From a virus (lineage: Duplodnaviria > Heunggongvirae > Uroviricota > Caudoviricetes), in IMG/VR virus record IMGVR_UViG_2671180283_000018: a DNA stretch of 4,383 nt. One strand, given 5' to 3'. The notes below the pieces were generated by a model. It did no database searches and was not told the origin of the DNA. It saw only the letters and a list, made by a program, of their open reading frames with translations. This document shows, in pieces, positions 1,965 through 3,278 of the stretch. Position 1 is the stretch's first letter. Every line of letters starts with the position of its first letter. A program made the translations under genes and the position numbers.

Positions 1965-3278
1965 ATGGCAGTAAAGATTTCAGGTGTACTGAAAGACGGC
2001 ACAGGAAAAACGGTAGAGAACTGCACCATTCAACTGAAAGCCAGACGGACCAGCAGCACGGTGGTGGTGAACACGGTGGCCTCTGAAAATCCGGATGAAG
2101 CCGGTCGTTACAGCATGGACGTTGAGTACGGTCAGTACAGCGTCATTCTGTTGGTGGAAGGCTTCCCGCCGTCACATGCCGGGACCATCACCGTGTATGA
2201 AGATTCTCAACCGGGGACGCTGAATGATTTTCTCGGTGCCATGTCGGAGGATGACGTCCGGCCGGAGGCACTGCGCCGTTTTGAACTGATGGTGGAAGAG
2301 GTGGCGCGTCACGCTGAGGAGGCGAAGAAGAATGCCGGAGAGGCGGAGACGTCAGCGAGGAATGCCGGCATATCAGCCAGTCAGGCAGAAGAGAGCGCTG
2401 CAAATGCTGACACTTCAGCAGGGGATGCATCGGAGTCAGCCCGGCAGGCGGCAGAAAGTGCAGCCGCTGCAAAGCAGTCAGAGGAGGCGTCCTCGTCCTC
2501 GGCCTCTGCGGCCGCTCAAAAAGCCAGTGAGTCATTACAAAGTGCAACAGATGCTGAGTTGTCAAAAAAGACGGCAGAAAGTGCAGCCGGTAATGCAGCC
2601 AGGGATGCAACGACCGCAGCAGAAAAAGCCCGGGAGTCAGCAGAAAGCGCACAGTCAGCGGAACAAAGCAGGATAGCGGCGGAGGAAGCCGTAAACAGAA
2701 TCCCCACCGTGGTGGGGCCTCCCGGGCCAAAGGGGGAACCGGGTCCCGCGGGTCCTCAGGGGCCGAAGGGAGATAAAGGAGAGCGTGGCGACACCGGCCC
2801 GGCAGGGGCAACCGGTGAAAGGGGGCCGGCAGGTGATGCTGGTCCGGCAGGCCCGCAGGGGCCGAAAGGCGACAGGGGAGAGCGGGGAGAGACCGGTCTG
2901 ACGGGAAATGCAGGTCCACAGGGGCCAAAGGGAGATACCGGTGCGGCAGGTCCGGCAGGCCCACAGGGACCGAAAGGAGAAACAGGTGCGGCTGGCCCGG
3001 TGGGGGCAACCGGACCTCAGGGACCGAAGGGCGACCCGGGGGAGACACAAATCCGTTTTCGTCTGGGGCCGGGAAACATTATTGAGACAAACAGCAATGG
3101 CTGGTTCCCGGATACAGATGGTGCGCTCATCACCGGACTGACCTTTCTTGACCCCAAAGATGCCACACGGGTTCAGGGTTTTTTTCAGCATTTGCAGGTC
3201 AGATTTGGCGACGGGCCGTGGCAGGATGTCAAGGGGATGGATGAAGTGGGCAGTGATACAGGCAGAACAGGAGGATGA
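1965..3278 (+). CDS. stf: Side tail fibre protein, Stf-like, with collagen-like triple-helix repeat region (437 aa)
   Basis: ORF ends at TGA 3276-3278. The preferred start is ATG 1965, giving [15 protein letters not shown]…, which matches my recollection of the lambda Stf N-terminus; the GTG at 1959 from the ORF track would add only two residues. Position after lom matches the lambda J-lom-stf order. Contains an Ala/Ser/Glu-rich repetitive segment and a long Gly-X-Y tract. Confidence 0.85.
2449..2589 (+). repeat. Pair of exact 18-bp direct repeats (cggcagaaagtgcagccg) inside the Ala/Ser/Glu-rich part of stf
   Basis: Identical 18-mers at 2449-2466 and 2572-2589, offset by 123 bp (a multiple of 3), each encoding (A/T)AESAA. 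The surrounding sequence has further degenerate copies of the same unit. Confidence 0.8.
2715..3041 (+). repeat. Collagen-like Gly-X-Y repeat tract within stf (~36 consecutive triplets, Pro/Lys/Glu/Ala-rich)
   Basis: Translation [109 protein letters not shown] has Gly at every third residue with no interruption. Nucleotide-level units recur (variants of caggggccgaaagg). Confidence 0.9.

Follow-up and report, generated by a model that had tools for sequence, protein, structure and literature searches.

What does a long collagen-like stretch do in the shaft of a phage tail fibre, and how constant is its length? The question is raised by a fibre gene in a stretch of 4,383 nt of tailed-phage DNA (IMG/VR record IMGVR_UViG_2671180283_000018), here called the window, which is the tail end of a lambdoid prophage. 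An earlier note, made from the letters of the window, had described the gene product as a mosaic fibre with a lambda-like anchor and a collagen-like shaft whose length could plausibly change. The tract is real and was correctly read, but the fibre is the known EPclA type of E. coli prophage side tail fibre, published in 2012, and its family, triple helix and length variation have been familiar since then (PMC3368898). The additions made here are small: a bias of deletion junctions towards blocks encoding GPQGPKGD, and a natural deletion of 162 nt in an isogenic background, neither of which was found in the literature examined on these fibres.

The locus

The gene order J-lom-stf is that of lambda, and this order departs from lambda only 3' of the fibre gene (Table 1). 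J is recognised by Pfam matches (Ig_J_second, Phage_Tail_Tip and Ig_GpJ_C) and by the gpJ annotation at the corresponding O157:H7 locus, while a terminator scan places terminator-like hairpins on either side of lom (1250-1273 and 1927-1948). Directly behind the fibre, a gene for a stand-alone PfC-domain protein starts one base past the fibre stop codon (TGAcATG) and occupies the position of lambda tfa. Its product shares 35% identity with the tip of the fibre (E = 4e-14), making the gene a PfC paralogue and not tfa. The same protein is ORF68 of phage Sp5, where it is non-essential (PMC5155283).

Further downstream lies an IS1 element, a neighbouring context that forms no part of the fibre. The equivalent arrangement, IS1 included, recurs at about 96-97% identity in O157:H7, O45:H2, O103:H2 and O145 genomes, where it runs on into an OspG/NleH-type effector kinase, and the annotation of O157:H7 TX 265-1 has an IS1 family transposase at the equivalent place. 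Position 3755 is taken by us to be the left end of the element, from the inverted repeat of IS1. With IS1 200 nt downstream the prophage may be defective, and the fibre may therefore never be assembled. A search of Rfam gave no RNA family match anywhere in the window.

Table 1. Annotated features of the window, with the domains of the fibre protein and the repeated blocks of its shaft.
Feature	Position	Strand	Basis or remark
Gene J, 3' part (central tail fibre / tip attachment protein)	8..1231	+	5' side missing at window start
lom (Ail/Lom outer-membrane beta-barrel)	1301..1900	+	PF06316, E = 5e-119
Side tail fibre gene, EPclA type, 437 aa + stop	1965..3278	+	Pfam, PHROG, layout
PfN, N-terminal anchor (collar) domain, residues 1-133	1965..2363	+	PF08400
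Ala/Ser-rich segment (PCoil), 117 aa	2364..2714	+	[quoted passage not shown]
Collagen-like tract, 37 Gly-X-Y triplets, residues 251-361	2715..3047	+	translation; PF01391
Six dispersed 23-nt direct repeats (family D1) encoding GP(Q/P)GPKG(D/E)	2715..3034	+	repeat search
D1 copies 1 to 6	2715-2737, 2751-2773, 2850-2872, 2913-2935, 2958-2980, 3012-3034	+	
C-terminal region, 76 aa, holding PfC	3048..3275	+	PfC Pfam match residues 363-426, nt 3051-3242
Stand-alone PfC-domain protein, 89 aa	3280..3549	+	PF06820, E = 1e-34; phrog_576
IS1 element	3755..4383	+	runs off window end; insA 3810-4085; PF03811 + PF12759

The fibre protein and its relatives

Translation of 1965-3275 (+ strand) gives a protein of 437 residues with the domain order PfN, PCoil (Ala/Ser), Col and PfC. 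Its identification as a tail fibre, already proposed in the earlier note, is borne out by the place of the gene after J and lom, like that of stf, by the PfN match (PF08400, residues 1-133, 227 bits against a cut-off of 26.6, E = 6e-68), by the PfC match (PF06820, 121 bits against a cut-off of 25, E = 2e-35) and by matches to PHROG tail-fibre families. The collagen-like tract lies where it had been placed, between the Ala/Ser-rich segment (117 residues) and a short C-terminal domain (the 76-residue PF06820 region). The Ala/Ser segment holds 38 Ala, 22 Ser and 15 Glu among its 117 residues (32% Ala and 19% Ser, or 51% for both) and has a dominant periodicity of 3.5 residues, of the heptad type; by equivalence to the EPclA domain it is probably a trimeric coiled coil. 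By the same analogy, the PfC region would be a module for trimerisation and nucleation, and PfC is presumably the receptor-binding tip. A sequence comparison of PfC alone with the PDB returned nothing credible (best E-value 0.11). AlphaFold2, run on the PfC region with an alignment of 24 sequences, gave a mean pLDDT of 54.6 and short beta strands only; the strands in this low-confidence model agree with published CD data.

The exact fibre protein is absent from a collection of 15 billion sequences, and the closest copy of the gene in a complete genome is 98.1% identical. The protein ends in ...GRTGG, its relatives in ...GRTGE. Alternative open reading frames lie over the tract on the reverse strand (2188-3048 and 2655-3440) and on the + strand (2332-2676 and 2908-3141); they have no Pfam match and are by-products of a periodic sequence with 71% G+C. 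Two homologues of 494 aa (P0007 and P0008) were considered as fusions of the fibre with the downstream reading frame and rejected as frameshift products: in them the PfC region of the fibre is translated in the reading frame that the 89-aa gene uses, and they offer no in-frame alternative tip.

Which known fibres does the protein resemble? The closest counterpart is EPclA (for example ECs2717 / Z0982 of O157:H7), which shares the PfN-PCoil-Col-PfC order with 437/116/111 residues (PMC3368898, Table 2), the triplets GPK, GPQ, GPA, GER and GET with the motif GP(Q/P)-GPK-G(D/E) (PMC3368898), and the place of its gene behind J and lom of a lambdoid prophage. The O157:H7 copies of EPclA are 96-98% identical to the window in DNA and differ by point substitutions only. 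Ghosh et al. (2012; PMC3368898) described this architecture for many prophages of O157:H7 Sakai and EDL933, so that collagen-like tracts in prophage fibres were known, as the note had stated. [quoted passage not shown] In the electron microscope the protein appears as a dumbbell with a semi-flexible, hinged stalk (PMC3368898). Of the "rigid trimeric spacer" suggested for the window's tract, the trimer therefore stands for EPclA, whereas the rigidity does not, given the hinge and the flexibility seen by EM (PMC3368898).

EPclB (933W L0121, Sp5 ORF67/ECs1228 and phi24B gp61) shares the distal collagen and PfC at 93% DNA identity, the matched rear part (window 2729-3200) being found in the short-tailed Stx2 phages 933W, VT2-Sakai and phi24B, and it is likewise followed by an 89-aa PfC gene of identical type. 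It differs in having two collagen tracts split by a Pf2 repeat, another N-terminus (VSVVVSGT) and a podovirus tail; the profile of Pf2 (PF03406), like the tail-fibre-assembly profiles, finds no match in the window. EPclD-type fibres of Shigella and E. coli share the front three modules at 81-95% identity and have a tract that is also variable, from 9 to 38 triplets. Here the PfN-PCoil-Col front is joined, in Shigella and some E. coli, to a Peptidase_S74 tip, an intramolecular chaperone that replaces PfC. The Scl1/2 proteins of Streptococcus and BclA of Bacillus combine an unhydroxylated Gly-X-Y triple helix with a globular trimerising nucleator and a repeat number that varies between strains. 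BclA is among the PDB matches; unlike the fibre, which has a phage-tail anchor and neither signal peptide nor LPXTG motif, these proteins are secreted and anchored to the cell.

A lambda-like anchor with another shaft and tip

The N-terminal module is that of lambda Stf. The first 351 nt of the fibre gene are 89% identical to lambda stf, and residues 1-93 match the Stf collar domain (chain 9e7m_Ta) at 85 of 93 positions (91%, E = 5e-52). Past residue 118 or so the similarity to Stf collapses, and beyond about residue 160 there is none; binned DNA identity falls after nt ~360 of the gene, placing the mosaic junction near window 2315-2325. Residues 1-94 of Stf have been solved in the Ur-lambda virion (PDB 9E7M), with twelve copies arranged as a collar at the gpV/gpM junction that bears four trimeric fibres (9E7M). 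Judging from this identity, the fibre of the window would attach to the tail collar in the same manner.

What lies behind the anchor is different. Lambda orf-401, orf-314 and tfa hold no Gly-X-Y run of at least four triplets, in agreement with the note's statement that lambda Stf lacks a collagen tract. Besides the collar domain, the fibre resembles Stf in that its gene follows lom and in having an Ala/Ser-rich helical stretch behind the anchor. However, lambda Stf continues as a long coiled-coil shaft with an OmpC-binding, gp37-like distal domain and has a Tfa chaperone gene, whereas the fibre has a collagen shaft, a PfC tip and, in place of tfa, the PfC paralogue downstream. At the level of sequence, the N-terminal module is thus all that the two have in common. 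Of 5,426 complete E. coli genomes, 4,716 match this module, Rac stfR being among the matches, and only 693 match most of the fibre gene. The mosaic origin put forward in the note, a lambda-like anchor with a different shaft and tip, agrees with these figures and with the separate module matches in E. coli, Shigella and Stx2 phages; the N-terminal search that it had proposed returned a Stf-like domain.

The collagen-like tract

The longest Gly-X-Y run in the fibre consists of 37 uninterrupted triplets (nt 2715-3047). An end at 3041 and about 36 triplets had been reported before; the start was right, the end and the count were not. In the remaining five reading frames Gly-X-Y runs reach at most five triplets, which excludes a chance origin of the tract, and the Pfam Collagen profile (PF01391) reaches 65.8 bits, well above its cut-off of 27.2. 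With a composition of G37 P21 A13 T8 K7 E7 D6 Q5 R4 the tract is, roughly as described, rich in Pro, Lys, Glu and Ala, Thr (8) being as common as Lys and Glu (7 each). Pro occupies the X position in 18 of 21 cases; X may also be Glu or Asp, and Y is Ala, Thr, Lys, Gln or Arg.

Is the DNA of the tract as repetitive as its peptide? A recurring peptide of 11 residues ([11 protein letters not shown]) is present in two exact copies and once as a variant ([11 protein letters not shown]), and the six D1 blocks are real. The copies of these units are nonetheless imperfect at the nucleotide level, where the note had called them repetitive: the D1 blocks are 78-91% identical, with 76 of 81 pairwise differences at third codon positions, and the longest exact direct repeat within the tract is 14 nt. 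Hence the peptide is repetitive and the DNA much less so. Tandem Repeats Finder reported only one weak two-copy repeat of 45 nt (82%), and simple tandem-repeat slippage was rejected as a source of length change on the strength of this single two-copy repeat and the 14-nt limit on exact repeats.

Length variation and its junctions

Among the 120 best homologues, the number of triplets takes the values 4, 5, 8, 9, 14, 15, 16, 19-22, 25-28 and 32-38. The 26 full-length EPclA-type genes from viral contigs are more uniform, with 37 triplets in 19, 38 in two, 36 in one and 27 in three; the remaining gene has 37 triplets and has lost its stop codon by a point change. Sampled phage records mostly have 37 triplets, some 38, and YYZ-2008 has 21. 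That length differences are "typically multiples of three" and that modules are shuffled was already noted by Ghosh et al. (2012; PMC3368898), who also described coiled-coil indels in multiples of seven residues. The latter are only partly matched here, where indels of 28 and 63 residues were found but also indels of 41 and 114.

Shorter alleles were modelled as the tract of the window minus one segment, with few mismatches, which yielded 21 distinct alleles. All those counted as deletions retain the reading frame and the Gly phase. In nine of the 21, the junction is ambiguous over 7-11 residues inside GP(A)GPQGPKGD blocks, against a chance expectation for block junctions of 4.9% by breakpoint or 0.9% by in-frame product (binomial P ~3e-7). 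Mapping at the DNA level showed five of nine alleles to join two D1 copies in register (2-4, 2-5, 2-6, 3-5 and 4-6) and the other mapped alleles to join different short similarities, the exact homology at mapped junctions being short (0-14 nt), compatible with RecA-dependent recombination as well as with replication slippage. The D1 blocks are preferred end-points of in-frame deletions. In the alleles of 27, 15, 20, 21 and 16 triplets the junction does not connect two GPQGPKGD blocks, and some short alleles, taken from draft assemblies, could be assembly errors. The 27-triplet allele was rejected as a clean single deletion: the step from 37 to 27 leaves 2 mismatches, with 2 nt of junction homology, and the change from 27 to 19 leaves 6 mismatches.

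A recent event is found within O157:H7. A query from O157:H7 Z1812, running from lom through the fibre and PfC genes into the beginning of nleC, was compared with sister genomes; it matches about 28 of them at 99.7-99.9%, and the match there is 162 nt longer than the query. At the orthologous locus the count of 37 triplets is unchanged in about 28 of 30 near-identical O157:H7 genomes, Z1812 and Z869 being short. Between Z1812 (L082) and Z1768 (L090) there are 0 mismatches over 6,152 aligned nt besides the 162-nt gap, which removes 18 triplets in frame and has its junction at GGTCC, at the start of D1 copies 2 and 4. Since the missing 162 nt duplicate none of the sequence that is kept, the short form arose by deletion or replacement and is not the state that preceded a duplication. 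In Z1812 one and the same 19-triplet allele occurs in two different prophages, whose counterparts in a sister strain hold 37 and 27 triplets; this may reflect gene conversion between prophages of one genome.

The in-frame change of length through repeated blocks that the note held plausible is seen in the allele counts, in the junction mapping and in this deletion from otherwise identical DNA, and the loss of 162 nt, or 18 triplets, is a length polymorphism in multiples of 9 bp of the kind it proposed to look for. The dominance of 37 triplets and the synonymous divergence of the blocks indicate that the locus is not hypervariable. Length variation is occasional, not rapid.

Selection and role in the virion

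Does the tract evolve as a functional part of a protein? Codon differences from the window were counted in 18 homologues of the same length. In these counts, which are phylogenetically non-independent, the collagen tract shows 219 synonymous and 42 non-synonymous differences, compared with 85/112 in the coil, 114/89 in PfC and 149/58 in PfN. The tract thus has the strongest synonymous excess among the four domains, and Gly is kept at 666 of 666 tract positions. This pattern argues for purifying selection on a putative triple helix and against simple decay.

The fibre gene is present in many sequenced Stx1 and Stx2 phages and in 2B8 and Evi; 2B8, Evi and Stx2 phage 1717 are examples of induced or isolated phages that have it. 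For the related EPclB of Sp5, immuno-EM gave a signal at the tail ends, and deletion of the gene abolished plaque formation and lysogenisation (PMC5155283). In the cryo-EM structure of phi24B the fibre is resolved at its N-terminus only, and the collagen-like shaft is called flexible. We infer that PfC binds a receptor; BamA as the target of the PfC tip is now doubted for the fibres of phi24B and 2B8.

A proposed mechanism and its alternatives

Very probably the tract forms the shaft, a collagen triple helix, of a side tail fibre of EPclA type encoded by a lambdoid prophage. During assembly, PfC and the Ala/Ser coiled coil would bring three chains into register, and the 37 triplets would then zip into a triple helix of about 32 nm (at 0.286 nm per residue, or 0.86 nm per triplet). 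This helix would form without hydroxyproline, stabilised by Pro in X and by charges, with Asp or Glu in X and Lys or Arg in Y. PfN would plug the fibre into the tail-tip collar, as in Ur-lambda. The coiled coil of 117 aa would add about 17 nm, and a loss of 18 triplets would take away about 15 nm; the small PfC tip would accordingly be held some 50 nm off the tail and could make the first contact with the cell surface. The number of triplets would set the length of the shaft, with occasional in-frame deletions, arising by mispairing or recombination between dispersed GPQGPKGD-encoding blocks, and rarer gains of 9 nt. Anchor, shaft and tip would be exchanged as whole modules between prophages.

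Could the protein serve the lysogen instead of the virion? As a lysogenic-conversion factor it would be a surface adhesin or a means of immune evasion, in the manner of Scl and BclA. The gene adjoins lom, which is expressed in lysogens, type III effector cargo lies nearby in related loci, and a bacterial role was left open by Ghosh et al. (PMC3368898). Yet the protein lacks a signal peptide (hydropathy over the first 40 residues reaches 0.23 at most) as well as an LPXTG motif, and its N-terminus shares 91% identity with a domain observed on the lambda tail. Together with the place of the related EPclB at phage tail ends, its need for plaques and lysogenisation (PMC5155283) and expression evidence that, as then available, seemed tied to phage induction (Ghosh et al., PMC3368898), this makes a conversion factor highly improbable. 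Alternatively, the gene could be the inert remnant of a decaying prophage and its length variants mere steps of decay without function. An intact reading frame, 219 synonymous against 42 non-synonymous differences with every Gly kept, deletion alleles that are all in frame and in Gly phase, and the occurrence of the gene in inducible, plaque-forming phages speak against such decay. It is very unlikely, even with IS1 directly downstream, many homologues frameshifted or truncated (P0094, P0095, P0109, P0112-P0120 and P0007) and length changes that are mostly deletions.

Repetitive peptide units and many length alleles also recall a contingency locus, in which slippage at simple sequence would switch the length at high frequency within a culture. 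Such a locus would be expected neither from blocks that have diverged synonymously, form no perfect tandem array and share at most 14 nt of exact repeat, nor from the constancy of 37 triplets in about 28 of 30 sister O157:H7 genomes, 19 of 26 full-length EPclA-type genes from viral contigs and the sampled phage records; of all the readings considered it is the least probable. Returning to the triple-helix shaft, its length may affect adsorption or host range. It is conceivable, though doubtful, that shaft length is a selectable setting of host range, with the blocks as joints and new lengths spread by gene conversion. If this were true, shortening in quantised steps of about 4-28 nm would adjust the reach of the fibre to how thick the O-antigen or capsule layer of the next host is, and the 89-aa PfC gene would be a spare tip in the recombination traffic.

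Biological meaning

The tract may interest designers of recombinant, hydroxyproline-free collagens. For the bacteria, the loss of 162 nt indicates that such deletions still occur within the O157:H7 lineage. Shiga toxin and type III effector genes travel between E. coli strains on the prophages and Stx phages that carry such fibres, and what the fibre binds and how far it reaches bear on the host range of these prophages and phages.

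Possible exchange of fibre alleles between co-resident prophages

In the O157:H7 strain Z1812, one 19-triplet allele of the collagen tract (counted in Gly-X-Y triplets) is found with 0 mismatches at two different prophages, one fibre locus neighboring nleC and the other an nleG cluster (L082, L083). The corresponding loci in the sister strain Z1768 (L090, L091) carry 37 and 27 triplets. A single deletion as the source of the 19-triplet allele from the 27-triplet allele is ruled out, since it leaves 6 mismatches. The identity of the alleles at two loci, together with the failure of one deletion to convert 27 triplets into 19, points to gene conversion between the co-resident prophages of Z1812. 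Upstream of the fibre gene, these prophages are identical over a J-lom stretch of at least 2.5 kb, on the basis that the annotated J protein has one accession at both Z1768 loci, and so does Lom. Alternatively, the shared allele may reflect cross-talk between the two loci in assembly or polishing.

The Ala/Ser coiled-coil segment (PCoil) also varies, with length differences of 28, 41, 63, and 114 residues among the homologues P0002, P0010, P0022, and P0082. PCoil indels have been generalised as multiples of seven residues (Ghosh et al., 2012, PMC3368898), but some of these differences do not fit the published rule.

Organization and reading frames of the fibre region

Features in and around the fibre gene
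Feature	Position	Strand	Remark
Terminator-like hairpin	1250-1273	+	one side of lom
Terminator-like hairpin	1927-1948	+	other side of lom
Long ORF	2188-3048	-	other strand, over collagen/coiled-coil coding region
Long ORF	2332-2676	+	other frame, over collagen/coiled-coil coding region
PCoil, Ala/Ser coiled-coil segment	2364-2714		fibre gene
Long ORF	2655-3440	-	other strand, over collagen/coiled-coil coding region
Long ORF	2908-3141	+	other frame, over collagen/coiled-coil coding region
Stand-alone PfC-domain gene, 89 aa	3280-3549	+	directly 3' of fibre gene
Diverged IS1 copy	3755-4383	+	insA at 3810-4085

The hairpins flanking lom create a moron-like arrangement familiar from lambda. The second one lies 17 nt ahead of the fibre gene's start, so expression of that gene presumably depends on antiterminated late transcription. 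At the other end, IS1 is inserted about 200 nt past the tail genes, an insertion common to O157:H7, O45:H2, O103:H2, and O145 strains. In relatives an OspG/NleH-type effector kinase lies beyond IS1, which stands between the tail genes and the kinase.

None of the four overlapping ORFs has a Pfam match, and they look like by-products of the periodic sequence, with its 71% G+C. A frameshifted reading of the collagen/coiled-coil region accounts for several "proteins" in the database (P0094, P0095, P0109, and others). Another database entry, P0090, is a 486-aa S74-tip fibre that carries the label [quoted passage not shown]; its contig measures 3.5 Mb and its sequence is Shigella-like, which together suggest that the assembly is mislabelled or contaminated.

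The downstream PfC gene

The start codon of the 89-aa gene lies one base past the fibre stop (TGAcATG). In two relatives the fibre has lost its stop codon or its frame close to PfC: in P0007 (locus L089) a frameshift leads into the frame used by the 89-aa gene, giving a 494-aa product, while at locus L008 the stop TGA has become TGT and the product is 455 aa. Both changes look like mutations or sequencing errors rather than programmed read-through.

What might the 89-aa protein do? With the tip of the fibre itself it shares 35% identity, and its family occurs only in E. coli, E. albertii, and Citrobacter rodentium. In lambda the position of its gene is occupied by the chaperone gene tfa. The Sp5 counterpart, ORF68, is non-essential and has been suggested to serve as a reservoir for tip variation (PMC5155283). 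The 89-aa protein may be a spare tip, a trimer partner or a chaperone.
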